DNA of 48,577 nucleotides from a virus (taxonomy: Duplodnaviria > Caudoviricetes), in IMG/VR virus record IMGVR_UViG_3300032293_002271, positions 1-48,577 of that record. One strand, written 5' to 3'. Below the pieces are notes generated by a model, which saw only the letters and a list, made by a program, of their open reading frames with translations, had not been told where the DNA came from and made no database searches. This document shows positions 5,909-39,749 of this stretch, one piece after another. The number at the start of each line of letters is the position of its first letter. Position 1 is the stretch's first letter. The translations under genes were made by a program, and so were the position numbers.

Positions 5909-6172
5909 ATGGGCGGTGATTCAGTTTTAAATAAGTTGATTGCTGGATTTACCAACGATGGGACTCCTCTTTCCGCAACTATTGGTTCCAAAATGGAACA
6001 TGGTGTTGTCATTTTGACAGCTGCCATGCTTGCAAATGAAAACCTTGCTGGTCAAATGACGGCAGAAGAAATGGTTGATGGCGCCATCAATTATTACAAT
6101 GTCATCCAAGAACGTCTTGGTTACTACCAGCAACACCAAGCACATTCTTTAGAAAGGCTGCTTAACAACTAA
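5909..6172 (+). CDS. Hypothetical protein
   Basis: AGGAG Shine-Dalgarno, with a TACAAT -10-like element upstream. Confidence 0.65.
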   Translation: MGGDSVLNKLIAGFTNDGTPLSATIGSKMEHGVVILTAAMLANENLAGQMTAEEMVDGAINYYNVIQERLGYYQQHQAHSLERLLNN

Positions 6173-11775: not shown

Positions 11776-11801
11776 TAAACTAGTACTACTGCCATGTGAC
11801 C

Positions 11802-12356
11802 ATGTATACCCCCGCCCCTCAACAGTACCAAGCGGCTGAAACCCCTCAGACTCAACCGGTTCCTCAGCCCCAGGACAAACCAAAAGCTCCTGCTAAGTCC
11901 AAGGCTGGCGGCGATGTGGGTGCATTCATCCAGCAGTGCATTTCTCTTTGCGCCTACCTAAAAGAATTGGAGACTCAGTCACATTTAATTCACCTCAACT
12001 ACGAAGGTGGTAACTTCTTAGGAGTCCACGCCTTCCTGAAAGATCAATACGAAGCACACCTAGAGCAGTTTGATACCCTTGCTGAGTTTGTACGCAGCAT
12101 GGATTATCTGATGCCGATGTGTGGTTGTGGGCTTAAAGATGCAGCTCCTCCTATCCAAGCTGTGACTTCCTACAAGGGAACTGACATGCTGGGTGTCTAC
12201 TACAAAAACCTTGAGGAGCTTGGCATGAAAGCCAAGAAGCTGGAACCCATTGCACAAAAGGTCGGTGCTATTGATATTGCTAACTATATGGCTGATCTTG
12301 TTGGCCAGGCTTTTAAAGCGGCTTGGTTTGTAAAAGCTACCCTGCGAAATAGCTGA
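11802..12356 (+). CDS. dps: Dps/ferritin-like DNA-binding stress protein
   Basis: HLIHLNYEGGNFLGVHAFLKDQY..HLEQFDTLAEFVR ferroxidase signature; AW near the C-terminus; P/Q/K-rich N-tail. Confidence 0.85.
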   Translation: MYTPAPQQYQAAETPQTQPVPQPQDKPKAPAKSKAGGDVGAFIQQCISLCAYLKELETQSHLIHLNYEGGNFLGVHAFLKDQYEAHLEQFDTLAEFVRSMDYLMPMCGCGLKDAAPPIQAVTSYKGTDMLGVYYKNLEELGMKAKKLEPIAQKVGAIDIANYMADLVGQAFKAAWFVKATLRNS

Positions 12357-12761: not shown

Positions 12762-12837
12762 GCACCTGGGTAGGAGTCGAACCTACATCGTTCTGCATCG
12801 GCAGTAACCGTACTATCCAATTGTCTCGGACCAGGTG
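12762..12837 (-). ncRNA. tRNA-like RNA 1 (Arg-type D-loop, collapsed anticodon loop)
   Basis: CACCTGG/CCAGGTG acceptor; D-loop AATTGGATA; CTGC-CGAT-GCAG; GTAGG-TTCGACT-CCTAC T-arm. Confidence 0.75.
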
Positions 12838-12839
12838 GA

Positions 12840-12911
12840 TCAACCGCGTTAGAATCGAACCAACTATCTAACTCCCTTGTCGGGGTGTCCTGCCACTGGA
12901 CTACCGGTTGA
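12840..12911 (-). ncRNA. tRNA-like RNA 2 (non-canonical anticodon arm)
   Basis: TCAACCG/CGGTTGA acceptor; GTCC-AGTGGCA-GGAC D-arm; CCC-GACAA-GGG; GTTGG-TTCGATT-CTAAC T-arm. Confidence 0.75.
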
Positions 12912-12999
12912 GCGACCCCCAGGTTTGTGCATCATCCTTAAACCATATTGTTGGCGCCAACAAAATGGTCTATGTATAGGAGCTAAGCATAGGGGGTGT
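12912..12999 (-). ncRNA. Rod-like structured RNA of unknown class
   Basis: Nested ACCCCC/GGGGGT, TGC/GCA, TCCT/AGGA stems and apical ACCAT-TTGTTGGCGCCAACAA-ATGGT. Confidence 0.6.
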
Positions 13000-13260: not shown

Positions 13261-13279
13261 GAAAGTATAGCGCGATACC

Positions 13280-13696: not shown

Positions 13697-14167
13697 TTAA
13701 ATATGTTTCCATGTCTTATTTTTTATAATAGCCGAGATAGTTTTATGATTTACCCCATACATTCTACCTAGCTCTCTTATACCGTAACCCTTCTGTTTAA
13801 GTTCTCGAATTTTTAAAACTTGCTCTTCTGTAAGTTTAGAAATGCCTACTTTGCTTCCTACTGCATGTTTTTTTTCGGAAGCATTATCTTCCAAAGGTTT
13901 CCAGCTTACATTGTTTGGCTCGTAGTTACCTTCATCTTTAAAACGAGAAAGCACATGATTTTCTGGTCTTTCTCCCATGTCCTTTAAGAAACATTCAAAA
14001 GACTCCCATTGTTCGCAAACTGTAACACCTTTTGCCCCATAGTTTTTATAACTTATATTTGATTTTAAAAAACAACGTTCACGCATGGCCCGCCAGCTAT
14101 TATAAGTAAGTGAACGTTGTACGTGGCCGCGTTTACCAACACAATGTCCGTGCGTTTTATGTGGCAT
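13697..14167 (-). mobile_element. Free-standing HNH-type homing endonuclease with C-terminal HTH
   Basis: YNSWRAMRERC..YKNYGAKGVTVCEQWESFECFLKDMGERP..GNYEPNNVSW and KLTEEQVLKIR; AT-rich. Confidence 0.8.
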
Positions 14168-15523: not shown

Positions 15524-15681
15524 AGGTCGACTCGGATGTATTCAATATCCTTGGATTGTAACCCCAATTCAAACGCATCGGCTTCAATCGTTTCAACATC
15601 ATCAAAAAGGCGTTGATTCAAAAGGCCGGTGCGCTCTTCGTCATCAATGTCGTAATAAAATCTAGTGAGATTAATAGACAC
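15520..15681 (-). CDS. 53 aa acidic hypothetical protein (not in ORF track)
   Basis: GTG start; MSINLTRFYYDIDDEER...IEYIRVDL; fills the gap with overlaps at both ends. Confidence 0.55.
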   Translation of the reverse strand: MSINLTRFYYDIDDEERTGLLNQRLFDDVETIEADAFELGLQSKDIEYIRVDL

Positions 15682-15910
15682 CTATAAACTCCCAAATGGA
15701 TTTGTGGGTCACAAGCTCCCATTGAAGGATGAAAAGCACAGCAAGCATAGCAGCTCTGCCATTGACACGTTCGGCGTACCAAAGGTAATCCTCGGGGTGA
15801 GTCGGTATGGTGGTTAGGTTGAGGTCGGGGCAATAATTATTGACAATTTCTTGGACGATCCAGGAGATGCAGTTGTACCAACCCTTGATCCAGAGTACGG
15901 CTTTGTTCAT
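15671..15910 (-). CDS. hli: High-light-inducible protein (one-helix LHC-like)
   Basis: AERVNGRAAMLAVLFILQWELVT chlorophyll-binding motif ExxNGRxAM. Confidence 0.85.
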   Translation of the reverse strand: MNKAVLWIKGWYNCISWIVQEIVNNYCPDLNLTTIPTHPEDYLWYAERVNGRAAMLAVLFILQWELVTHKSIWEFIGVY

Positions 15911-17172: not shown

Positions 17173-17364
17173 ATGGAAATCCACCTGGTTTCCGTAGGCG
17201 AGTGGATGAATGCGCTCCAAAATCGCATGATGAATGCGATGGACGGGGATTGTTTTCTCTTGCCTACATACATGCATCTCCATGCATTTACCATCCTCAA
17301 GGATGGGATGTTCGCCGAGCGAGACTTTAAAGTAGAACTACAAAACACCAAGGAAGCCCAATGA
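17173..17364 (+). CDS. Hypothetical protein
   Basis: 63 aa, ATGA-coupled to the primase. Confidence 0.6.
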   Translation: MEIHLVSVGEWMNALQNRMMNAMDGDCFLLPTYMHLHAFTILKDGMFAERDFKVELQNTKEAQ

Positions 17365-20000
17365 ACGCAAACCAACAACTCCTCAAGCCCGGCGAAATTC
17401 GTCTCGACTATATCCCCATTGATTGGCCCTTAACACCCTTAGGCGGCAACAAGGATCCTTATATCGCAGGCTGGCAAAACAAACCCTTTAGCGTACGAGA
17501 AATTGAAGAAGAACTTACCACAGGGGACTGCAAAGCCATCGGGCTACTGGGTGGGCCTGTTTACAACCATCCTTATGGTTTGGTGTGGGTGGATGTTGAT
17601 GGTCCGAGTGTCTACAAGCTACTCGAAGACATCTCCGGATTACCCCTACAAGACGCACTGCCGCCAACCCTGACCATTTTCAGTGGCAAAATTGGACGCG
17701 AACGGAAACTGTATCGGTTAGACCGAGAAAAACACAAGCATTTTGCGCGTAACAAATATACGTGGCATGCAGAGGAAGACAAAGAAAAGCTTGAGATCTT
17801 GTGGAAGAAACACCAAGGCGTGCTAATGGGTCTGCACCCTGAAACGGATGGTTACTTTACGGGAGACAGCTGTGGTTTTGAGTGGTCCCAGCAACTGCCT
17901 GAACTTCCGGAATGGCTTTTGAATGCCATCATCAACAAGAATGTCAAGCAGGGAATCCCCTCGACTGAGATCAGTCGTGTCGTAATGCCAGGTAGCGTTG
18001 TTCACAGTGTGATCAGCGTTGACCGCGACATGAAGCTAGCCGTCAAGGCAATGTGGGCCTTGCCTCCGGAAGCTGCAGACGATTATGACATCTGGATCAT
18101 GATCGGTCAGTCGCTCCACAGCTTGGACGAATCTTTGCTAGATGACTGGGATGACTGGTCACAACAATCGGATAAGTATCGGGAAGGTGAGTGTCACAAA
18201 CGGTGGCTTTCCTTCAGTAAGGGTGGTGGTCGTGGTATTGGCACTCTCATCCAGACTGCCCAGGAGCACGGCTTTGTGGTGCCCCAGGACTACCGGGCAG
18301 AGAGCGTGGATGACGAGACGCTTGAAGCTGCGGCGGCGGCACTGAAGGCCCTGGAAGACGCAGAGCAAATGGTCGTAACAATTCCTAAAGAAAAAGAAGA
18401 GCGTTCGATGTCCAGTGTTGGGCATATTGCTAACTCGCTAGAGGAAGCAATTGCCATGGGCGAAGACGTTAAAACGGCGGATGGCAACAAACGTGGTCCG
18501 TCTACCTCTGAAATTGTCGACGTACTCCTCAGTAAATACAAAGGCGGTGTTTTGTACAGCCTGCCGCATAACCAATTCTTTGTTTACGACACTCGCCGTA
18601 ATGTCTGGTCGCCTCTAACAAAGATTGAAACACTGGGCAAGATCCGTCACGACCTCACAATGCTTGGCGATTTCCTTAAGAAAGGCTTTACGTCAAACAT
18701 GATGAATGATGTTTTCATTCAACTCCAGGCTGCATTGGCATTTAGTGAGTGGTATGACGGCACTGACTACTTACTGTTTACGAATGGCATCTTGAATGTT
18801 GAGACGCGTGAACTGCTTCCGTTTAATCGGAACATGTACATGACTCAACAAATGCCCTATGAGTATGACCCGTCTGCTACTTGTGAACCCATTGTCCAGT
18901 GGCTGAAACATACCCAACAGGACAGTTGGAAACGTACGCAAGTATTGCGTGCATGGCTGAGGGCAACACTTTTGGGTCGCTACGAAACCCAGAAGTTCCT
19001 TGAGATTGTAGGCCCAGGTAAATCAGGTAAATCCACTTATGCAAACCTTGCTGTTGCATTGGTTGGTAAAGCGAACTGCTACTCCACTGATATGGAGAAC
19101 CTGGAGAAAAACCGATTTGAAGCCGCATACTGTTTCAATAAAAAGCTGTTGCTGTTCCAGGATGCAGACCGTTGGGGTGGCTCCGTATCAAAACTGAAGG
19201 CGATCACAGGTTGTGACTGGATTCGTGCTGAGCGTAAGTATCAGGGCGACGCAATGGATCCGTTCCAGTACCACGGTGTTGTCATCATTACTGCCAACGA
19301 AGCTATTCAGTCAACTGACTACACTTCTGGTCTTGCTCGTCGGCGTCTTACTGTTCCGTTCGATCGTCCATTTGAAGGTGGACAATCGGAACAAAAGGAA
19401 CTAATTAAGTTTGATACCAAGGGCAATCCGCAGGGTGTATTTGCGCCACTGCTTCCAGGTCTCGTGAACTGGGTCCTGGATATGAATGAGGATGAGATGC
19501 GTTCTCTACTGATGGAAACCAGTCAACACGTGCCGTTCTTCCAGAAGTATGAGAAAGCTCAATCCTTACGCTCAAACCCAATGCTTGATTGGCTCGATAG
19601 CAAAGTGGTATTTGAACCAAATGCTTCGACTCCTGTTGGATACTGCAAGGTTGCGACTGGTGGTGGGTCAGGTGTCTATTTGAATTGGGGTACGTGGCTG
19701 TATCCAAGCTATGCAGAATTCTGTCGTAGCTGTAATGTCGGCATTATTTCGCGTGCTCGTTTTGAAGTTCTACTGATGGACATCCTCCAGCATCAGTTAA
19801 AGCTTCATGCGTACACCATGAAGAATACGGCAGGTCTTCGCGTTAACAACGTTGCAATCAGGGACAGCAAAGAAGATTACAAGAACTATCCTTCGATTGT
19901 TGAGTTGGCTGCAAACCCAGATGAACACAGGGCTTTTTATGGGGCTATCAAAATCAAGGCTGCTGATGCGAAGATAGAGGATATGCCTGCCGAAACGTGA
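17361..20000 (+). CDS. Bifunctional primase-polymerase / PriCT-2 / D5-type SF3 helicase
   Basis: WPLTP..KDP..GWQ, VDVD, HPETDGY; DYDIWIMIG.SLH...WSQQSDKY; FTNGILN; Walker A GPGKSGKST; ITAN; RRL.VPF. Confidence 0.9.
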   Translation: MNANQQLLKPGEIRLDYIPIDWPLTPLGGNKDPYIAGWQNKPFSVREIEEELTTGDCKAIGLLGGPVYNHPYGLVWVDVDGPSVYKLLEDISGLPLQDALPPTLTIFSGKIGRERKLYRLDREKHKHFARNKYTWHAEEDKEKLEILWKKHQGVLMGLHPETDGYFTGDSCGFEWSQQLPELPEWLLNAIINKNVKQGIPSTEISRVVMPGSVVHSVISVDRDMKLAVKAMWALPPEAADDYDIWIMIGQSLHSLDESLLDDWDDWSQQSDKYREGECHKRWLSFSKGGGRGIGTLIQTAQEHGFVVPQDYRAESVDDETLEAAAAALKALEDAEQMVVTIPKEKEERSMSSVGHIANSLEEAIAMGEDVKTADGNKRGPSTSEIVDVLLSKYKGGVLYSLPHNQFFVYDTRRNVWSPLTKIETLGKIRHDLTMLGDFLKKGFTSNMMNDVFIQLQAALAFSEWYDGTDYLLFTNGILNVETRELLPFNRNMYMTQQMPYEYDPSATCEPIVQWLKHTQQDSWKRTQVLRAWLRATLLGRYETQKFLEIVGPGKSGKSTYANLAVALVGKANCYSTDMENLEKNRFEAAYCFNKKLLLFQDADRWGGSVSKLKAITGCDWIRAERKYQGDAMDPFQYHGVVIITANEAIQSTDYTSGLARRRLTVPFDRPFEGGQSEQKELIKFDTKGNPQGVFAPLLPGLVNWVLDMNEDEMRSLLMETSQHVPFFQKYEKAQSLRSNPMLDWLDSKVVFEPNASTPVGYCKVATGGGSGVYLNWGTWLYPSYAEFCRSCNVGIISRARFEVLLMDILQHQLKLHAYTMKNTAGLRVNNVAIRDSKEDYKNYPSIVELAANPDEHRAFYGAIKIKAADAKIEDMPAET

Positions 20001-20350
20001 GCAACGGACGCCACTTAATTCTGGATCTGTACGACTGTGATCCAGATATTTTGAACGACTACGAGGAGCTTCAGCGTTTGCTTGAGGCTTCTCTTGTCAT
20101 GGCAAAGGCAAATATCCTGCGCATCATTGGTGAGAAGTTTAAACCACAAGGTGTGACACTACTTGCCTTGTTGGCTGAATCCCATGCATCTGTCCATACG
20201 TGGCCGGAGATTGGGTATGCGGCAATTGATTTGTATACGTGTGGCGATACTACAGAAACGCATCGCGCGGCTGAGTTCCTAAAAACAAAACTCAAGGCAA
20301 AAACATCGGAAGAAAAAGAACTTGTACGGTCGATTGCACCAAGTAATTAG
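19997..20350 (+). CDS. speD: S-adenosylmethionine decarboxylase proenzyme
   Basis: GRHLILDLYDC, FKPQGVT, LAESHASVHTWPE (ESH cleavage site), DLYTCG. Confidence 0.95.
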   Translation: MSNGRHLILDLYDCDPDILNDYEELQRLLEASLVMAKANILRIIGEKFKPQGVTLLALLAESHASVHTWPEIGYAAIDLYTCGDTTETHRAAEFLKTKLKAKTSEEKELVRSIAPSN

Positions 20351-20379: not shown

Positions 20380-21651
20380 ATGAGTCAAAAACCAAAACTT
20401 TTGTGGGCTGGTGACATTGTTGCCATGACCGGTTTTGCCCGTGTCACGGAAAACGTACTGAAACACCTAAAAGATAAATTTGAAATCGTAGTGCTTGGTC
20501 ATAACTGGTGGGGTGACCCCTGTGACCAGCAGAAGGAATACAAGATGTATCCTTCGTCTAATCGATTCCAAACTGCACCGTTTGGTGAGCAACGGATTCG
20601 TGAAGTTGTTGAGCGTGAGCGGCCTGACATCGTATTCACAATCAACGATATGTGGATCATTAATGAACAGTACAAACAAATCCAAGATTTGCACAAAGCT
20701 GGTAACTTTAAGTTTGTTGGTTATGCACCAATGGATTCGTATGGTTGGACAGGTTGCCTGTCAGATACCGCCAATGATTGGGATGCCGTAATCTCGTACA
20801 CGGAATTTGGTGCGTACGAATTTATTAAAGGTGGTATCACCAAGCCGATTGCGGTAATTCCTCATGGTGTGACACCAGGGCAGTTCTATCCCAAGGACAA
20901 AGCTGAATGTCGCAAAGCGCTTGGCTTGTCGCCGGATAATTTTATTGTGTTCAACGGAAACAGGAATCAGTTCCGTAAACGGATCGACATCACAATCCAA
21001 GGTTTTGCCAAATTTGCCGTGGGTCGGCCCGATACAAAACTGTATCTGCACATGGGCCTTAAGGACCAGGGCTGGGACATTATGCAGATCTTTGCACGTG
21101 AGATGCAACGGGTTGGTCTTGACCCGAACAATCGCATCATCATGACGACGCAAACGGAAGGCCCTCCGAACGTTGAGGTGGACATGCTTAACACCATCTA
21201 TAACGCTGTCGATGTCGGCGTCAATACGTGCAAGGGTGAGGGCTGGGGCCTTGTCAACTTTGAGCACGCTGCCTGCAAGGTGGCTCAGGTAGTGCCAGAC
21301 CATACGTCCTGTAAAGAAATTTTTGATGGGTATGGCGAGTTAATTCGTTGTGATCACGTTGATTGTGACACAAATTATGGTCGTGAGATGCCGTGCCCTT
21401 CTTCAGATCACCTGGCAGAAATCTTGGAACAGTTGTACGAACTGCCTGATGTCCGCAAGCAGATCGGTGAACGCTGCTACGAACGTGTGACGGATTCTCA
21501 ATTCTCATGGAAAACAGTTGCGTCTCAATTTGGTGGCATCTTTGAGGATGTACTGCGCCAAGGGGAAGGGGAAGTCTCGAGTGAGACACCAAAACCTAAG
21601 AAGTCGCGCAAGGAGCGGGGCAAACGTGTGCTTGCGGGTAGCGCTACGTAA
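20380..21651 (+). CDS. GT-B glycosyltransferase (GT4-like)
   Basis: TGFARV, IPHGV, NRNQFRKRID, IYNAVDV, GEGWGLVNFEHAAC. Confidence 0.85.
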   Translation: MSQKPKLLWAGDIVAMTGFARVTENVLKHLKDKFEIVVLGHNWWGDPCDQQKEYKMYPSSNRFQTAPFGEQRIREVVERERPDIVFTINDMWIINEQYKQIQDLHKAGNFKFVGYAPMDSYGWTGCLSDTANDWDAVISYTEFGAYEFIKGGITKPIAVIPHGVTPGQFYPKDKAECRKALGLSPDNFIVFNGNRNQFRKRIDITIQGFAKFAVGRPDTKLYLHMGLKDQGWDIMQIFAREMQRVGLDPNNRIIMTTQTEGPPNVEVDMLNTIYNAVDVGVNTCKGEGWGLVNFEHAACKVAQVVPDHTSCKEIFDGYGELIRCDHVDCDTNYGREMPCPSSDHLAEILEQLYELPDVRKQIGERCYERVTDSQFSWKTVASQFGGIFEDVLRQGEGEVSSETPKPKKSRKERGKRVLAGSAT

Positions 21652-21672
21652 GTACAAGGGTACTGGTACCAA

Positions 21673-21700
21673 GGCCTCCACGTCAGGTGGGGGCTTTTTT
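21673..21700 (+). terminator. Intrinsic terminator
   Basis: GCCTCCAC-GTCAG-GTGGGGGC followed by T6. Confidence 0.8.
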
Positions 21701-21715
21701 GTGGCGAGAAGTGGG

Positions 21716-22075
21716 GTATAGCTGGAAAACACCCCCTTATTTTTGCCGCTATACAGATGATTCATCTAGTTCTTAGGAAAAACGAACTTATGGATAAGTT
21801 AGGTTTTGTCGCCAGGTTGGTCATGTATAGCTGGAGAATTCTGACGGATCAGTCTTAAGATGAGACGGTGGCGAGAACACCGGGGGTACGGGGGATACAA
21901 ATGTACTAGAGGTAAAAGGTCGAAATTACCCGCTATACATGCACAACTTTTCCAGAAAACCTAACTTATCCATAAGTTCGTTTTTCTTAGAGATAAGTTC
22001 AATTAAGCGTATAGCGGGAAAAAAATCGAGGATTTACCCGCTATACCTTACTTTTGCCCCCATTTACCGCTATAC
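21716..22075. repeat. Dyad-symmetric iteron/inverted-repeat array, candidate replication origin
   Basis: Perfect 31 bp IR (21777-21807 / 21956-21986) plus seven GCTATAC-core repeats, six of them in mirrored positions. Confidence 0.8.
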
Positions 22076-22126
22076 TTGGGTGGTCGATTCCTTCAACTCA
22101 CCTCAGTGCGCACCTACACCGACCAA

Positions 22127-22513
22127 ATGCCCCTCTGGTACATCCAAGAACGCCTGGCGCTTTCGGATGAATTCCCCAGTGCCCTGGTCTGGACCATGTC
22201 TTTCCAGCGCCACAAAGCTGGGGATATGGCTGGCAGGTTGGATCGCGTGCATGGCGTGTACAAGGTGTGGCTCTGTGGCACTCCCTACGTGGCGCACAGG
22301 ATCGTGTACTACCTACGCACTGGTGAAGACCCTGGCGCAGCAGACGTAATCCACGGTGAAGACAACCCTGAGAAGGACAACAGGAAGGAGTTGGTCTTGC
22401 GCCAGAGGAAGGCGCACAATCCCGTCAAACGCTCGTATTGCCGCACCGCAGTCAAGCTTGGCTTAAGCGACGTGGATGTCATTGCAATGAACGAAAAACT
22501 ACTGGAGGTTTAA
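22127..22513 (+). CDS. HNH-like protein, degenerate
   Basis: AGRLD..G.YKV..CG.PYVAHRIVYYLRTGEDP..DVIHGEDN..KDNR. Confidence 0.6.
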   Translation: MPLWYIQERLALSDEFPSALVWTMSFQRHKAGDMAGRLDRVHGVYKVWLCGTPYVAHRIVYYLRTGEDPGAADVIHGEDNPEKDNRKELVLRQRKAHNPVKRSYCRTAVKLGLSDVDVIAMNEKLLEV

Positions 22514-22516
22514 GCC

Positions 22517-23260
22517 GTGGCAAATACTTTGGACAATCGTCCCATTCGTCAAGCAGTCCTGGCACCATCGGACTACCCTCCAATACCTGGCATCGACAAG
22601 ATGTCAAAAGAAGAACTTGAATTCCACGGTTACTACAGGGGTTATCCGTGTCTTCATAACCATTCAATACGCGAAAAAACCAAGCATTGGTGCTATCACT
22701 GCGCACAAAAAATCCGCAGTAATATCTGTGGCTTTGATGTCAACTATTTAAGTAGTGACTGTAAACACCAATACGCCAGGATCTGGAAACAAATCCCTGT
22801 AGGGCATGTGGAAGATTGCTGGGAGGCGCCAGGGGTTGCTCGTGCTCGTTATGGGTTACCTTCCTATAGGAATCTGGAGACCAGTAAAACGAATAACAAT
22901 CAAACAGCTCACAAGCTGATCTACCAGTGCGCATGGGGTGATGTGGGATCAATGCGCGTGACGCGTACTTGCGGAAATAAAACTTGCTTAAACCCTTTAC
23001 ATTTGATCACAAGTTGGAACCGAGTGTTCCCCCCTGGCAGCATCCATCCATTTTTTTATGAGTTTGAGTATGAAAAACTAATGCTTTACAGCGAGGCTTG
23101 CCGCCAAGGAATGTCAACAGTATTGACAAAACGTGCGTACAAAAACACTATTCAACACCCTTTAGTGCACAAAAACATCCCCGATTATGATGATGATTAT
23201 GCACAGAATCTGAACTATAATGTCGCGCAATCAGGTTGGCCAACCACAAAGGAACGTTAA
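22517..23260 (+). CDS. His-Me finger/HNH-derived zinc protein, likely inactive
   Basis: C.H.H..CYHC; DCWE; TAHKLIYQ.AWG...VTRTCGNKTCLNPLHL (expected His replaced by Arg). Confidence 0.6.
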   Translation: MANTLDNRPIRQAVLAPSDYPPIPGIDKMSKEELEFHGYYRGYPCLHNHSIREKTKHWCYHCAQKIRSNICGFDVNYLSSDCKHQYARIWKQIPVGHVEDCWEAPGVARARYGLPSYRNLETSKTNNNQTAHKLIYQCAWGDVGSMRVTRTCGNKTCLNPLHLITSWNRVFPPGSIHPFFYEFEYEKLMLYSEACRQGMSTVLTKRAYKNTIQHPLVHKNIPDYDDDYAQNLNYNVAQSGWPTTKER

Positions 23261-23966
23261 TAATCCCTTGGTACTAGGAACCTTTAGTGAAACATCGCTT
23301 CGCTATTTAAAAGGTGCCTTGGGTCCCGTTTCAAAACCTGTGGGCCGCGCGGATACAAATCAACTGTCAAATGGCGGGTTTGGTGGAGGAACTTATAACC
23401 ACTGGTTTCAAATAAACCTAGCTTCTCCCGCGTGGATCATTGTCACCAAGGGACCTCCACGCCCCAAATACATCAATGCTTCCGTGTATGAACTAGATAA
23501 AAATCCAATACAAAGTCATGGTATTTTCCAGGCTGATTCAGTTATTGCCACAGTAGATGGCAGGCTTTCAAAGCCGTATTTAGATACGGTAATGAGTGCT
23601 CAATCTGATTTGGCTAATCAATTTGACAAAGGCCGCTTAGACGGTGGGGACGAGCGTTATGAGGCATTGCCTGTTGGCTCATATTTACTTTGCGTTTCTT
23701 CGACCCGCAATGAACCACTTGAGTATGCGGTTGGTATAGTTATTCAATTCCCCGACAATGAGCCATTAATTGGTCTTGAAGACGACGACAATAGTTTATT
23801 GATCACAGAAGATGACGTTGCTATCCTTGTGGAGATTGAGAATCCTGAACTATACAGTTCTTTTCAAGACCATTCGTTACTAGAATGGCAGAATGCATGG
23901 GAGAGGGAGCATCAAGACACTGATCGTTTCCCTGAAATTTTCATTCCGTTGACGAACAGGCCATGA
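23220..23966 (+). CDS. Hypothetical beta-rich protein, possibly virion-associated
   Basis: 248 aa; beta-sandwich-like pattern (YNHWFQINL..LPVGSYLLCVS). Confidence 0.6.
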   Translation: MSRNQVGQPQRNVNNPLVLGTFSETSLRYLKGALGPVSKPVGRADTNQLSNGGFGGGTYNHWFQINLASPAWIIVTKGPPRPKYINASVYELDKNPIQSHGIFQADSVIATVDGRLSKPYLDTVMSAQSDLANQFDKGRLDGGDERYEALPVGSYLLCVSSTRNEPLEYAVGIVIQFPDNEPLIGLEDDDNSLLITEDDVAILVEIENPELYSSFQDHSLLEWQNAWEREHQDTDRFPEIFIPLTNRP

Positions 23967-25567: not shown

Positions 25568-28285
25568 CTAAAGCTCCAAAGATTGCACCTTGGTTTCAAG
25601 TACTTTAATACGTTTGTCTTGGTTTTTAATCAAATTAAGCAAGTGTGGGACAAAACGATCATATTGAACGCCTTCAGCCTCTGGTTCTTCCAAGGGAGCA
25701 TCTACGTATTTGCCATCTTCTTGTTTAATTTTTTCGGTTGTTTTCCAAAAAACAAGTCGTGGGTCAATGAGAGCAACTTCTTCTGCAATAAAGCCCCACC
25801 ATCCCAATCTTGGGTCGTCAGATGGACAAGTAGACCTGTACCAAACAGGACGGCAGTTTAACAATGCCTCTGAATAACTGTACTGTGCATCTTCTACTTG
25901 TGTTTTGTATTTAATGGATGAAGTGCTCCTGCGAACAAGACCGCTAACATCAATGTTTATATTTGCCGCTGTCGCAGTCGTAGTGTTGTATGTTGTTTCC
26001 GAACGTATTGTTCCAGTAGCAGTCAATATATTGCGTTCACTTGTTGAAAAGAAACGTTGAAGAGCCCACCAAGTGTCGCCAGAGGGGTCAATACGGAATC
26101 TACTTAATGCTGTAGAACCTCCGTTTGCAGTTGTGTAAAAACTTAATGTTGTCGGCATACTGGCAGCACCAGGAGAAGCTCCAACAGTCGCTTCTATCTT
26201 TGCTCCTTCAAGGTAGCTAGAACTTCCATTTGCACCATACCAACGCAAAGTTCCCAGAATGTCCGAAGTCTGTACAATTGTATTGGTGCCTACAGTGGCT
26301 CCTCGGCTTTTATAAAATGTTGCGTCGACACCACTACTGGCATTAACAAAACAACCCAAACCAACCGTGTTACCAGAAGTAAAATGCGCTTGAATTGATT
26401 CGTTTCCAACAATGCTTGTTGTTGTGCCAACTAGAACACGTTTACTTGTGTCTACGGTTACAGCCGCTGTGTTGTTTTGAATAAACGTAACATCTACGTT
26501 AGAAGTTGTGCCAACAACAGGGAAATTTCCAGTGGCAAAGTTTGCGGTTGTACCTGTTACTGTTGTACCAGTAATACTAGTTGCACCGATACTCCCACCA
26601 GTAATAGTGGTAAATTGCCCAGTAATGCCAGTAATTGTGGTGCCAGAAAGCGTGGTATAGGTTGAAAGAGTTCCACTGTTATTAACAAAATTTCCAGTGG
26701 TAAAGTTTGCAGTTGTACCAGTGACCGTTGTCCCTGTGATATTAGTGGCGTTAATTGTTACGCCTGTAATATTTGTGGCATTAATGTCCCCACCAGTAAT
26801 AGTTGTAAACTGACCGGCATTACCAGTAACAGTGGCGCCGGACAACGTTGTGTATGTTGAAGTAGTACCGCTATTGCTAACAAAATTACCGCTAGTAAAA
26901 TTCGCAGTTGTACCTGTTACTGTCACACCAGTAATATTGGTTGCGCCAATTCCGCCACCCGTAAGAGTTGTAAACTGGCCGGCATTACCAGTGACAGTGG
27001 CACCAGAAACCGTTGTGGTGAATACGCCAACAATTCCAGTGAGGTTTGTAAACTGACCGGTATCACCGCTTACTGTAGTTCCGGAAACACGTACAAAATT
27101 TCCTGTTCCTGCTGTTAAATTTGAAAACTGCCCAGTGTTACCGGTTACAGTGGCGCCTGATAATAGTGTAGTAAATACACCTGTTACGCCTGTAACACGT
27201 GTGAAAACTGAATTATTACCTGTAACTGTTACGCCAGAAATTCGGCCAGTAAAAATACCTGAAACACCGGTTACAAAAGTAGCAGATACCGAGTCGCCTG
27301 TGACTGTAGTTCCAGATAAATTTGTGTATACGCCTGAAACACCAGTAATTAAGCTAAATAAACCTGTGTTTCCTGTTATGGAAATACCAGAAAGGAACTG
27401 AGTAAATACACCCGAAATACCGCTAACCGAGCCAAATGAACCTAAATTACCAGTGACAGTTGCTCCTGATACCCTTGAGGTAAACGTTCCGGAAACTCCT
27501 GTAATTTGTGTTGTATTAACTGTTTCACCCGTGATGGATGCACCTGAAAGAGCTGTAGTAAATACGCCCGTTACACCCGTAACGCTTGTAAATGCCCCTC
27601 TTGTACCAGTAACTGTTGCCCCCGAAAGCGTTCCAGTCACTTGTACAATAGTTGCAAACTGAGCCAGGCCTGTTACTGTTAAGCCGCTTGCAACAGATAG
27701 GTTTCCCCCAATAGTCAAAGACGGTGTAGAAAGTTCCTGAAATGTTCCAGTGGTTGCAGAAACAGTGGCGCCTGTAACAAAAGTCCCACTTAGTGTTCCA
27801 TACGTACCAGAAGTAGCATTGACTTGGTTTCCTGTTATCGTAGCTCCAGATAAAACCTGAAATCTGCCGCTCGTAAAATTAGCAAAAGTTCCCGTAGAAG
27901 TTGTTGTAGTAGAGGTTACTGAGTTGACGTTAGTACCTTGAACGTTAATACCTGTAATTGTATTGCCGCTTATAGTGCCGCTTACTGTTGCGTTGTTTTG
28001 AACAAGAATTGCGTTAAATGTTCCTAAACCAGAGCTGTTAAGTGTATTGAAATTGCTGTTTCCAGTGACAGTTAAATTACTGTTGATAGTGACGTTGCCA
28101 GTAAAAGTAGTGCCGCTTGTTGCAGCGTAATAAATATTAAGATACTCTTTAAATTGCGTAAAAGTAATCTTTTTATTGCGCAGCGTCGGATCTACTTCAA
28201 AAACATGGACAAGCGTTAATAGGTCTTGTTCATCAACAAGAGACCCATCAATTGACGGAAAGTCGGAGATTTTCCTATTTGCCAC
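25568..28285 (-). CDS. Tail fibre/spike with T/G-rich repeats and C-terminal S74-type chaperone domain
   Basis: MANRKISDF head; many SGATVTG...FT.ITG repeats; SSIKYKT..RPVWYR..GFIAEEV..YDRFVPHL. Confidence 0.8.
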   Translation of the reverse strand: MANRKISDFPSIDGSLVDEQDLLTLVHVFEVDPTLRNKKITFTQFKEYLNIYYAATSGTTFTGNVTINSNLTVTGNSNFNTLNSSGLGTFNAILVQNNATVSGTISGNTITGINVQGTNVNSVTSTTTTSTGTFANFTSGRFQVLSGATITGNQVNATSGTYGTLSGTFVTGATVSATTGTFQELSTPSLTIGGNLSVASGLTVTGLAQFATIVQVTGTLSGATVTGTRGAFTSVTGVTGVFTTALSGASITGETVNTTQITGVSGTFTSRVSGATVTGNLGSFGSVSGISGVFTQFLSGISITGNTGLFSLITGVSGVYTNLSGTTVTGDSVSATFVTGVSGIFTGRISGVTVTGNNSVFTRVTGVTGVFTTLLSGATVTGNTGQFSNLTAGTGNFVRVSGTTVSGDTGQFTNLTGIVGVFTTTVSGATVTGNAGQFTTLTGGGIGATNITGVTVTGTTANFTSGNFVSNSGTTSTYTTLSGATVTGNAGQFTTITGGDINATNITGVTINATNITGTTVTGTTANFTTGNFVNNSGTLSTYTTLSGTTITGITGQFTTITGGSIGATSITGTTVTGTTANFATGNFPVVGTTSNVDVTFIQNNTAAVTVDTSKRVLVGTTTSIVGNESIQAHFTSGNTVGLGCFVNASSGVDATFYKSRGATVGTNTIVQTSDILGTLRWYGANGSSSYLEGAKIEATVGASPGAASMPTTLSFYTTANGGSTALSRFRIDPSGDTWWALQRFFSTSERNILTATGTIRSETTYNTTTATAANINIDVSGLVRRSTSSIKYKTQVEDAQYSYSEALLNCRPVWYRSTCPSDDPRLGWWGFIAEEVALIDPRLVFWKTTEKIKQEDGKYVDAPLEEPEAEGVQYDRFVPHLLNLIKNQDKRIKVLETKVQSLEL

Positions 28286-32207: not shown

Positions 32208-32513
32208 TCAAAACGGTTGCAAACCGTCTTCATCTTCGTCCTCGTCGTCGCTGTAAATACATGCGGCGGCGAGTTCTGCTAATTCAATATCAGTTGGGTG
32301 ATCCCAGTCAATCTCAATGTCTTCAGACGCCATGATGTCTCGGATGGCGTACCACTCCATCAAGCGTTGGTGGTAAAGGTTTAGCAAAGCAGTGTGGAGC
32401 TCGTCCCAGGTCATCTCTTGGGCCTGAAGCTCAGCCTTGCGCATTGCAAACTGGAGTTCTAGAGGAAGTTCAAACTCCCTGGGCTCAACTGACCGCTCCA
32501 TTCCGCTTTGCAT
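32208..32513 (-). CDS. nblA: NblA-like phycobilisome degradation protein with acidic tail
   Basis: ELPLELQFAMRKAELQAQEMTWDELHTALLNLYHQRL, similar to NblA LSLEQQF..R....QV..MS.EQ....L..LY.Q. Confidence 0.65.
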   Translation of the reverse strand: MQSGMERSVEPREFELPLELQFAMRKAELQAQEMTWDELHTALLNLYHQRLMEWYAIRDIMASEDIEIDWDHPTDIELAELAAACIYSDDEDEDEDGLQPF

Positions 32514-33709: not shown

Positions 33710-35920
33710 TTAACCAAATAGTGAACCAAGTCCGCTTCCGCCGAAGAGGGAAGGAGCACCTTCATCTTCTTCATCTGAAAAATAATCAAAGTAGCTTGAG
33801 CGAGTCGGTTTATATGTTTCCTTCTTTTTTATAGTATCATCAGAAAGCATTTTATCAATTGATCCCATTGCAGCAAAAGGATCAGAAAAATCAGGCAAAC
33901 TAAAGCCCATCAGTCCTTGCAATCCTTTTGCTGAACTAGCGTTGCCTACATCTGAAGCCGTTAGATTTTTGTCTTCTTCAGTGGCATCAGGAAAAAACTC
34001 AGTATAAAACTCTGACTCACTTCCACCATAACCTGCCTTCTGAAAAATATTAAACAGTGCGCTGCCACCAGCAGGCGCTTCGACTTTCTCATCTGTGTCT
34101 CTTTGAATATAACCAAATCCCAATTGCTCTTGCGTTGGCTTAATCTTTTGTTCGTTTAACTGTTTAATGCGCTCACGTATGTCAATTGCTGGATCAGTGC
34201 TCAGGATGCCCATGAGTGCACCTTTGATTTCCTCCGCAGGATCCGTGCTCGTATTGTAACCAAGGTCTTTTAACTTTTCCTGAAGATCACTTGGCAACTG
34301 TGCAACATCTAATTTATCAACAAACTCTTTAGCTTTTTGTTCAGCTGAAACAAAACTAAGGAAAACCGGATTACCAAAAGAAGCTTTTTGACTTTGCAAA
34401 GCATCCGCCAAAGGACCTTGAATAAAAGCTGCTAGGTCGTTTCTTGTGTAACTATCGGCAACAGGATCATAGTTTCTATCTTTACCAATAACAGCGTAAT
34501 GCAGACGAGCAAAGTCATCTTTGTTTTCTAAATCAACACCATATTCATAAGCAAGTTGGACCCATGTTTTGCCATCTTTTACCACCGTGTCACTATTGCG
34601 TGAGTCCCAGGAGCTTTGCACACCTTGCTTTTGTTGTTCATATAGACCTTTTTTTGCCTGTACATCGGTACCAGTAAGCAGTTCAGGATTCCAATAAAAA
34701 TTAGGGTTAAATTCCCTTTGTGTTGTTTTTCTACCAAGTTCATTAATAAAAGTCTGCGCTTGTCTGTTAGCAAAGTCTTTCAAAGCACTTGAAGCAAGCT
34801 GAGTCTGCAAAACGTTTTGCTCATCTTCTTTAACGTCCATATAACTAATGAATTCAGTAATTGACTTTGAAGTGTCAAAACGAGGCTTCAAATAATCTTG
34901 AACAAAGGAATTGGCAAATTGCTTTTCAACTTGATAGGTTTTAGCAGCATCTTCTGGACTTGTAACTTGCGACATTTCTTGATATCGCTTGGCAAGTGTT
35001 TCGTCAAACCATTGCTGCCAATTATATTGAACAGATGAACCTATGCCTAGGCTGCGATCTAAACTTTCGGATAAGCTTTTGCCAAGTTTGGAATCGCCTC
35101 CAAAACCCATGTATCCACCAGCGCCGCTGTCGCCCAAGATTGAGTTTTTAATGTCTTGCTTGAAGCTGCTGACACTGGGCATGCCCATTCCCTGAAGCAT
35201 GTCCGACATCTCTTGTTTCTTAAGCGCTTTTGAATATTCGCCTAATGTCTGTTTCATGACATCAGCAGACAAAGCGCCAAAAACTTGCTCGCCTTGTTTG
35301 TCAATGTAATCTTGAGTTGCTAATTCAGCAAGAGATTCAGGTTTGCCGGCTGATTTACCTATTATTGTTTGACGCAAAATCTGACGTTCTCTGTCGGTAG
35401 GCGCCCTTAAAGTTTCTTTGTAGGTTTCCAGGGGTTTTGGTTTACCTAGTCGACCACTTGGTGCGCCGACAAACGTGTAGTTTGCATGCAAAAAAGAATC
35501 TAGATCTGCGTATTTTTTCGTGATGTCGATATCGGCAATTTTCCTGCCGCCAAATGAAACTGCGGAAGAAGCATTGTTCCAGGCTTTGACTTCCTCTGGA
35601 ACTTGCTTAGAGTAAAATTTTGCATCAAACTTATCAAGCGGGACACCTTGCTTGGAAGAGTCCCAAACCTGCGCCCCTGTTGCTTTTTGGTAAAAATTCT
35701 CAACTGATTCAATGGTCTCGTCGTCAATATAATCTTTAGCGTTACTGTTGTTTTTTTGAAGAGTCTGATCGAGAGACTCCATTAACATCTTGTAGTTTTC
35801 TGGACCTTGAATTCCGTTCAGGCGTTGTGCAATCGTATCTGCCACTGTGACTTCATCACTTGTTGCGTCCTCAGGAAGAACAGGTTTTAACGAGCCGTCA
35901 ACAGTAGTGAAACGAATCAT
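33710..35920 (-). CDS. Large helical protein, probable internal virion protein
   Basis: 736 aa in the morphogenesis block; no recognised domain. Confidence 0.6.
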   Translation of the reverse strand: MIRFTTVDGSLKPVLPEDATSDEVTVADTIAQRLNGIQGPENYKMLMESLDQTLQKNNSNAKDYIDDETIESVENFYQKATGAQVWDSSKQGVPLDKFDAKFYSKQVPEEVKAWNNASSAVSFGGRKIADIDITKKYADLDSFLHANYTFVGAPSGRLGKPKPLETYKETLRAPTDRERQILRQTIIGKSAGKPESLAELATQDYIDKQGEQVFGALSADVMKQTLGEYSKALKKQEMSDMLQGMGMPSVSSFKQDIKNSILGDSGAGGYMGFGGDSKLGKSLSESLDRSLGIGSSVQYNWQQWFDETLAKRYQEMSQVTSPEDAAKTYQVEKQFANSFVQDYLKPRFDTSKSITEFISYMDVKEDEQNVLQTQLASSALKDFANRQAQTFINELGRKTTQREFNPNFYWNPELLTGTDVQAKKGLYEQQKQGVQSSWDSRNSDTVVKDGKTWVQLAYEYGVDLENKDDFARLHYAVIGKDRNYDPVADSYTRNDLAAFIQGPLADALQSQKASFGNPVFLSFVSAEQKAKEFVDKLDVAQLPSDLQEKLKDLGYNTSTDPAEEIKGALMGILSTDPAIDIRERIKQLNEQKIKPTQEQLGFGYIQRDTDEKVEAPAGGSALFNIFQKAGYGGSESEFYTEFFPDATEEDKNLTASDVGNASSAKGLQGLMGFSLPDFSDPFAAMGSIDKMLSDDTIKKKETYKPTRSSYFDYFSDEEDEGAPSLFGGSGLGSLFG

Positions 35921-36273
35921 GACGCTTCTTTGCGTAGCTGTAAATCAATTAGATTGAAACCGTCTGGCTCCATCCAAGCTTTTATTCTACTTAGCTTTTC
36001 TTCCGTAAAAAAAGACTGTTGGCGGTACCAGGTCTCCATTTCAGATGATGCTTTGTTTGCATTACATTTTTTGCATGCCGGAACCAAGTTGCTCCTATTG
36101 GAGCATCCGGATTTAAAACGCGGAACAATATGATCTAAGCTTGTAGCCTGTTCTTCGCAATAACCGCATTTGTAATCCCAGGCTTGATATATACTTTCTC
36201 TAAATCGTTTCTTAGCAAGTTTTGGTCTTAATTCAACTAGCAGGGCAAGGGGCTCGTGCTGGCTGCAAAACAT
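35917..36273 (-). CDS. HNH endonuclease (McrA-like)
   Basis: CGYC....SLDHIVP...G.....NLVPACKKCNANK. Confidence 0.85.
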   Translation of the reverse strand: MFCSQHEPLALLVELRPKLAKKRFRESIYQAWDYKCGYCEEQATSLDHIVPRFKSGCSNRSNLVPACKKCNANKASSEMETWYRQQSFFTEEKLSRIKAWMEPDGFNLIDLQLRKEAS

Positions 36274-36409
36274 GCTCTTCAATTGCCGTTAATTGATTCT
36301 AATTTCCCTATGCATGTTTCCCTTAAAAGAATAAAGATAAAAATTTGCTTAAGGCAGTTGACAGGCTCTTGACACCATGTAAGGTACGTAGGTAACGACT
36401 GCCACCTCC

Positions 36410-39176: not shown

Positions 39177-39749
39177 GTGTTCTGTAAGCCCATTCTAATG
39201 GACAACATTTTTCTTTGCTCAAAATGTGGACAACCTTTCACAAGTAAATGGCCATCATCGGTTCGTTACCGTTTAAGAAAAAATAGAAAAATCTTTTGCT
39301 CAAAAATCTGCGCATCAATAACTCATGGAGCCTGGTCCGTAGATGACAAATTTAATTCTGAATACCGTTCTTGGCGGGCAATGAAATCACGCTGTAACTG
39401 CAAAAGTAATACATATTATGCACGCTACGGAGGACGTGGTATTACATATGATCCGAGCTGGAATAGCTTTGAGAAGTTTCTAGAAGACATGGGTCCAAAA
39501 GAAAATCCAAAACTAGAACTAGAGCGTATTGACAACGATAAGAATTATTGCAAAAAAAATTGTCGCTGGGCTACGCACAAAGAACAAACGCGCAATCGTG
39601 GAGGGAAACGCGCAACAAGGCTTTACACGTTTGAAGGAAAAACTATGTGCATCGCTGATTGGGCAAAAGAGGTTGGTATATCGCCGCAGTCTATGCAAAA
39701 AAGGCTGAACAACAATTGGCCTTTAGAAAAAGCTTTCGCTAAAAAGTAA
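39177..39749 (+). mobile_element. HNH-type homing endonuclease inserted antisense in the structural operon
   Basis: CSKCG..FCSKIC; EYRSWRAMKSRC..YGGRGI..W.SFEKFLEDMG..LERIDNDKNYCKKNCRWAT; T..G.TM.IADWA. Confidence 0.8.

Follow-up and report, generated by a model that had tools for sequence, protein, structure and literature searches.

What function does the mirror-symmetric array of short repeats at positions 21,716 to 22,075 serve in the viral contig IMGVR_UViG_3300032293_002271? The whole contig, 48,577 nucleotides long and called here the window, had previously been read from its letters alone. That sequence-only reading took the array for a candidate bidirectional replication origin at which two types of site are bound by two different proteins, with an invertible segment or a packaging or terminus signal as alternatives. 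The analysis described here makes it probable that the element is a bidirectional origin, of the kind represented by pRN1, BIP-1 and the SaPIs. Support for this assignment is comparative: the element occupies the same slot downstream of a primase-helicase gene throughout a clade of cyanophages, and BPP-1 contains a similar element.

Anatomy of the element

The element is built around a perfect inverted repeat with 31-bp arms, located where the sequence-only reading had placed it (the B dyads in Table 1). The arms are exact reverse complements and cannot be extended. An inverted match of 31 nt was reached in none of 1000 dinucleotide shuffles of 21716-22075 (maximum 20 nt), and the longest other exact inverted repeat anywhere in the window measures at most 16 bp. 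The arms are accompanied by seven copies of a GCTATAC core, called A, a number likewise not attained by any 7-mer in 1000 shuffles of the same segment (maximum 6). The earlier count of seven thus stands, with the correction that the plus-strand copies had been placed 2-3 nt too early, preceding bases having been included. An eighth copy, the only one in the window outside 21716-22075, is located at 13265. In 264 other 360-bp segments, no 7-mer was present in more than 5 copies and no inverted match exceeded 16 nt. The mirror score of the element is 54, that of the next best site in the window 16.

Table 1. Positions of the element, its parts and the neighbouring genes in the window
Feature	Position	Strand	Description and basis
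Primase-helicase gene	17361..20000	+	879 aa; Prim-Pol, PriCT_2, D5_N and DUF5906 (SF3-type helicase) domains; predicted initiator; Pfam
S-adenosylmethionine decarboxylase gene	19997-20350	+	Between primase gene and element; Pfam, PHROGs
Glycosyltransferase gene	20380-21651	+	Between primase gene and element; Pfam, PHROGs
Terminator-like hairpin	21674..21700	+	Followed by a T run; closes the upstream operon; seen in the sequence and in many relatives
Outer extra copy of repeat A	21716..21722	-	Core search
Left arm	21740..21841	+	A core 21748-21754(+), 22-nt spacer, B dyad 21777-21807, 17-nt spacer, A 21825-21831(-)
Central dyad (motif C)	21852..21866	.	GTCTTA..TGAGAC; common to the clade
Right arm	21922..22023	-	Mirror of the left arm: A 21932-21938(+), 17 nt, B dyad 21956-21986, 22 nt, A 22009-22015(-)
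Additional B-like half-site	~21991-21999		In the right arm
Two extra copies of A (22040, 22069)	22040..22076	+	Directly 5' of the HNH-like gene
135-aa HNH_3-like gene	22106..22513	+	phrog_99, E=2e-8
247-aa zinc-binding His-Me-finger-like gene	22517..23260	+	phrog_1872 endonuclease, E=2e-11

Along the element the spacers measure 22, 17, 17 and 22 nt, and for these the exact mirroring claimed earlier holds. It does not extend to the outer A copies at 21716 and 22040, whose mirror positions are off by 1 nt, or to the copy at 22069, which has no mirror partner. The spacers had also been said to differ in sequence. This proved incorrect: they are partly complementary, since the 31-bp arms form the core of an ungapped 102-nt inverted repeat with 76% complementarity. 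Each 102-nt arm is itself nearly palindromic, running from a forward A through a spacer, the B dyad and a second spacer to a reverse A. The equal spacers suggest two copies of one protein-binding geometry on opposite strands. A would be a protein-bound iteron, because its extra, unpaired copies carry the same phage-specific sequence. The A+T content of the centre is 0.37-0.60; stretches with 0.70 A+T are situated in the arms. A DNA similarity search with 21600-22200 against annotated phages returned a single chance match. Elsewhere in the window there are two 16-bp perfect palindromes (6075-6090 and 12948-12963), each centred on GGCGCC.

Genes surrounding the element

Judged from its sequence, the window is an S-EIV1-like cyanophage contig. 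Portal and capsid genes are present (Pfam/PHROGs). Host-type genes consistent with a cyanophage are represented by weak matches to NblA (32211-32513, minus strand) and to chlorophyll a/b-binding proteins (15674-15910, minus strand) and by a ferritin-like (Dps) gene (11796-12356, plus strand). ARAGORN predicted one tRNA-like gene (12836-12911, minus strand) with an unreadable anticodon. The genes around the element are arranged in the order primase, AdoMet decarboxylase, glycosyltransferase, terminator-like hairpin, element, 135-aa HNH-like gene and 247-aa gene, which places the element 1.7 kb and two genes downstream of the primase gene. The order in S-EIV1 is identical except that the HNH-like gene is missing.

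The primase-helicase of the window is 56% identical to the S-EIV1 primase, its only full-length match in the annotated phage collection. PDB 7ola, which we take to be PriRep5, was the sole sequence match among solved structures (E=1.8e-8). Residues 735-862 resemble Pox_D5/RFX clusters at 0.92-0.95 (ESM Atlas), a lead according to which the C-terminus of the primase likely carries a winged helix.

Homologs of the 135-aa protein retain a His and a DNR motif in 70 of 74 cases, and 28 of 39 show a weak HNH_3 match. In the 12 columns after DNR no Asn or His is conserved, nor is there a conserved acidic residue just before the His. The gene is missing or degenerate in 32 of 113 relatives. Its product is a candidate reader of A or, alternatively, a putative nuclease. 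In the family of the 247-aa protein, 7 of 32 homologs display a weak zf-His_Me_endon match, and a resemblance to an HNH_3 cluster was obtained at 0.90. Of 92 homologs, 85 have Arg, 5 have His and 2 have Lys at the position that we assume, from the motif and not from a structure, to be that of the catalytic His. When solved structures were searched with profiles of this protein, only chance matches or none were obtained. As described for His-Me finger nucleases, the catalytic His ends the initial beta strand, and the Smad MH1 domain is a precedent for the loss of catalysis with retention of DNA binding (PMC5714182). The 247-aa protein is thus a candidate for a nuclease-dead DNA binder. The lineage formed by L187, L189, L190, L192 and L193 keeps His where 85 of the 92 homologs have Arg; the mirror scores of its elements are weak (z 0.9-3.2, four scored). 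In 91 of 93 loci examined, the gene after that of the 247-aa protein encodes a 248-aa protein of no known family (23220-23966, plus strand, in the window). Three more HNH endonuclease genes (13697-14167 and 35917-36282, minus strand; 39177-39749, plus strand) indicate a genome rich in free-standing nucleases.

Conservation among S-EIV1-like cyanophages

Throughout the clade the slot is non-coding and has a fixed place downstream of a gene for a Prim-Pol/PriCT-2/D5-type primase-helicase. At this slot, an ungapped mirror score of at least 20 was obtained in 66 of 110 distinct relatives and in none of 423 control windows. With gapped scoring, 101 of 113 distinct elements exceeded all 30 shuffles and 12 did not. 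In all nine whole genomes scanned (one of them, G006, without its last 457 bases) the element is the top mirror site, marginally so in S-EIV1, in which the scores are 17 and 16. The sequences of the elements diverge widely between phages and the layout is constant: in each arm a short repeat, A, is followed by ~20-25 nt of T-rich spacer and then by the dyad B. The B dyad of most phages is based on ACAC..GTGT with a variable gap; the clade of the window has a divergent form of it. The central dyad of the GTCT(C/T)A..TGAGAC type (motif C) is found in 56 of 96 elements, compared with 69 of 1529 control windows.

That two types of site are set at fixed spacing, as the sequence-only reading held, is borne out by the relatives: A and B are each alike in the two arms of a phage, the spacers much less so. 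In 54 loci the similarity between left and right within a phage is 0.76 for A, 0.79 for B and 0.53 for the spacer, as against 0.49, 0.61 and 0.45 between phages, and the partial correlations between the arms are 0.59, 0.60 and 0.18, respectively. These values are derived from the loci in which B was anchored automatically (58 of 93, 54 of them distinct); the window's own clade, in which anchoring failed, does not contribute to the correlations. For these cyanophages, a widespread group with one annotated record in the phage collection searched, the element is a concrete origin candidate.

Two other explanations were considered. If the 31-bp arms bounded an invertible segment, their perfection would be accounted for, as would the same substitution in both B arms of locus L004. 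In the likely source sample, the assembled unitigs end at the arms and contain no strand-changing joint, so that they do not fix the orientation. The relatives nonetheless make inversion extremely unlikely. Among 48 loci, all 50 close pairs agree in the orientation of the centre, as do the four members of the window's own clade, long perfect arms are absent from most relatives, and the Pfam/PHROGs scan of the window ORFs revealed no invertase gene nearby. The second explanation, a structured non-coding RNA, would agree with a single strand that folds far better than shuffled sequences (z = -10.95, DNA parameters) and with the changes on both sides at 2 of 95 pairs among four close relatives, although protein binding or copying between the arms would look alike. 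We regard it as very unlikely, given that no Rfam match reached the family threshold, that the element comes just after a terminator-like hairpin and that the spacers across the clade keep their length with little complementarity. Of 43 loci, 20 contain at least three exact A 7-mers, among them direct copies for which simultaneous pairing of all is impossible. The arms of the DNA may additionally need to pair as a cruciform, with which the matching change in the two B arms of L004 would agree.

Evidence for and against an origin

According to the proposed mechanism, the Prim-Pol/SF3 primase-helicase would be loaded twice at the element, on one A-spacer-B module per strand, would open the T-rich spacers and would prime synthesis in both directions. 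The loading of two hexamers and the priming steps are inferred here from other systems. The bbp29 protein of Bordetella phage BPP-1 has the same four Pfam domains as the window primase, and ~470 bp downstream of bbp29 there is an inverted repeat with 48-nt arms in which tandem units, T-rich spacer sequence and a dyad are combined. An HTH protein is encoded nearby in BPP-1; four phage records in which a homolog of it is present, with no primase-helicase match in the stretch fetched, contained no such repeat (scores 13-16). The small HTH gene of BPP-1 was considered as an origin partner and rejected, as its homologs are located near terminase genes in phages devoid of the repeat.

Several observations count against an origin. 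In LR797314, which encodes a related D5/DUF5906 helicase together with a Toprim primase, no mirror element was found. The distance of 1.7 kb from the primase gene and the centre, which is not AT-rich, also speak against this assignment. About three quarters of the genes point toward the element, whose replication forks would then meet transcription head-on. Cumulative GC skew in the window tracks gene direction. The skew at four-fold sites in nine whole genomes runs in the expected direction in six, with the best split ~10 kb from the element, and is confounded by codon use. The element is situated at 50-51% of the length of the near-complete contigs G007 and G010, and the ends of 84 contigs form no clear cluster opposite the element.

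The element lies 2-6 kb from the point at which transcription converges, roughly opposite the point of divergence. This location, the dyad sites and the two neighbours from nuclease families would also suit a site at which replication ends or its products are processed, by a fork stop, concatemer resolution or a rolling-circle nick, possibly through the adjacent His-Me finger proteins. Such a role is quite improbable. Neither among the 57 window ORFs scanned nor in the S-EIV1 annotation was a recombinase found, 85 of 92 homologs of the 247-aa protein have Arg at the predicted position of the catalytic His, and the known parallels downstream of primases of this type act as origins or have been proposed to do so. 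A signal for packaging or for the genome terminus, the other alternative raised earlier, is very improbable. The similar repeat of BPP-1 does lie ~290 bp upstream of the small terminase gene, but in nine of nine cyanophage genomes the large terminase gene is ~30-39 kb away, and the ends of the 84 contigs, which had been chosen by their flanking genes, do not cluster at the element.

Which proteins read A and B?

The winged helix of the primase does not track the A and B sites in a simple way, as comparison of close relatives suggests. L145, L147 and L148 have primase domains that are 98-100% identical except for one linker (90-95%) and winged helices that are 99-100% identical, and the main copies of their A repeats have three different sequences. 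Their HNH-like proteins are only 72-81% identical, and in A and in its closest HNH-like protein (84%) L147 agrees with L151, a more distant locus. L021 has A and the HNH-like protein (89%) in common with L086, but B and most of the primase with L020. The primases of L020 and L021 are 97-100% identical save for the last 120 residues (73%), which suggests that the predicted winged helix was exchanged as a domain; the two loci have a common B despite the 73% identity of this domain.

The state of the HNH gene may be related to the sequence of A. Where the HNH gene is degenerate or missing, 20 of 32 elements contain at least two A copies of the GACTT type; where it is intact, none of 81 does. The supported independent contrasts between HNH state and GACTT-type A numbered 4 in the primase tree and 4, then 2, in trees of the 247-aa protein; at the two-copy threshold none was in the opposite direction, and they are too few for significance. 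Over 990 pairs, A and the winged helix show a partial correlation of 0.32, and over the 498 closer pairs one of 0.13; the value for A and the HNH-like protein, 0.24 over all 990 pairs, is comparable to the first of these. The correlation of left-arm A with HNH identity, 0.34, was equalled in 385 of 500 within-clade permutations, so that in this clade-controlled test A-HNH covariation did not go beyond clade structure. The spacers follow the HNH-like protein as well as A does, which fits linkage.

A possible, though doubtful, interpretation of these patterns is that A is read by a domesticated HNH-family protein, origin and HNH gene forming a swappable specificity cassette, or that the 135-aa protein is an origin-directed nuclease. 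In the latter version it would cut the default GACTTT-type origins of co-infecting relatives and in this way drive the turnover of A. Linkage with co-conversion beside a mobile nuclease gene, as portrayed in the source cited, could give the same A/HNH pattern (PMC10448857). An HNH-derived protein that sets origin specificity or attacks the origins of relatives would, if confirmed, constitute a new route to phage replicon incompatibility. The roughly one hundred natural variants, in which sequence, spacing and candidate proteins vary separately, bear on origin recognition in Prim-Pol/SF3 replicons.

The same two proteins could act on transcription instead. In an operator/promoter complex, A and B would be the targets of the two downstream HNH-derived proteins, which would in this way regulate the operon that encodes them and take no part in the start of replication. 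The extra A copies are located just 5' of the HNH-like gene of the window, and in L145-L151 the last A abuts the start codon. The A copy at 22069 overlaps a TATACT -10-like hexamer identified by inspection of the sequence. A scan with consensus models listed neither a promoter nor a terminator at the element, the hairpin at 21674..21700 included. The divergence of the HNH-like genes in phages with nearly invariant primase domains and the apparent lack of catalytic or metal-binding residues in both downstream proteins also favour a regulatory function. We consider such a complex unlikely as the sole function, since a two-fold element of 200-300 bp, set behind a terminator-like hairpin, lacks a divergent gene on which it could act, since phages that have no HNH-like gene still keep the element, and since a similar element follows a primase of the same architecture in BPP-1. 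An operator role could coexist with an origin.

Comparison with known systems

A literature search, mostly at the level of titles and abstracts, yielded no account of the element or of an HNH-derived origin reader in cyanophages. The element is compared here with the closest known replicons. pRN1 requires a stem-loop downstream of its primase-helicase gene, the structure of which is conserved and the sequence is not (Berkner et al. 2014, PMC4234260). The same type of origin was proposed for phage BIP-1, and specific binding of the pRN1 protein to its origin could not be shown (PMC4234260). Both systems resemble the window in that archaeo-eukaryotic primase, SF3 helicase and winged helix (a predicted one in the window) are combined in one protein and in that a large inverted repeat is located downstream, after a terminator, with the layout kept and the sequence not. 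The element of the window is two to three times larger, has a pair of B dyads and is separated by 1.7 kb from the primase gene, unlike the origins of pRN1 and the SaPIs, which directly follow that gene. It also has repeated A sites, whereas the pRN1 origin is described there as lacking an iteron structure (PMC4234260).

The repeat of BIP-1 (26,607-26,710 of the record; L441:1108-1211) and BPP-1 (L447:3864-3967) lies between bbp28 and bbp27, has 48-nt arms and comprises tandem 9-nt units, a T-rich spacer and a central dyad. In BPP-1 these parts stand in mirror order, in which the repeat is similar to the window element. The origin proposed for BIP-1 is given as near 27,000, an approximate position ~300-400 bp away from the repeat found here (PMC4234260).

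The sequence-only reading had taken P4 alpha as its model, which is not the closest one: the P4 primase is described as Toprim-type, that of the window is an archaeo-eukaryotic Prim-Pol like those of pRN1 and BIP-1 (PMC4234260). P4 does share with the window a fused primase-helicase, a winged-helix origin-binding domain (predicted in the window) and direct plus inverted repeats. P4 replicates bidirectionally and has a second, distant cis site, crr. One mirror site stands out per genome in the cyanophages, which leaves no second distant cis site like crr evident. In NrS-1, two primase sites on opposite strands are reported at the genome centre (PMC7102993). In Caulobacter phage SR18 (L444:4280-4480), several GTAACCAC-type repeats and an inverted copy lie on either side of a purine-rich stretch that is also AT-rich, downstream of the gene for a VapE-like helicase; the arrangement looks like an ordinary iteron origin.

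For SaPI origins, iterons of opposite orientation are described on the two sides of an AT-rich centre (PMC9371898), and the loading of two hexamers has been proposed (PMC9371898, PMC7581432). With SaPI and SCCmec the window has in common short opposed repeats that lie downstream of the gene for a helicase or primase-helicase, an enzyme that loads itself and has a winged helix at its C-terminus (in the window a predicted one); the match to 7ola (PriRep5) is a further point of resemblance. In those elements, iteron recognition falls to the winged helix and the AT-rich part is the centre (PMC9371898, PMC7581432), whereas in the window clade A varies without a change of the winged helix, the T-rich tracts are in the arms and there is a second type of site. 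Origins that vary between close relatives are known from the PLEs, where they are reported to vary together with a specificity protein, RepA. An origin-directed nuclease of ICP1 attacks this satellite and was proposed as a driver of origin turnover (PMC8263062). The covarying partner in PLE is a RepA_N domain; the candidates in the window clade are the HNH-family genes beside the element (PMC8263062 for PLE). By analogy, the element probably works like the primase-helicase origins of pRN1/BIP-1 and the SaPIs, as a variant with two types of site.
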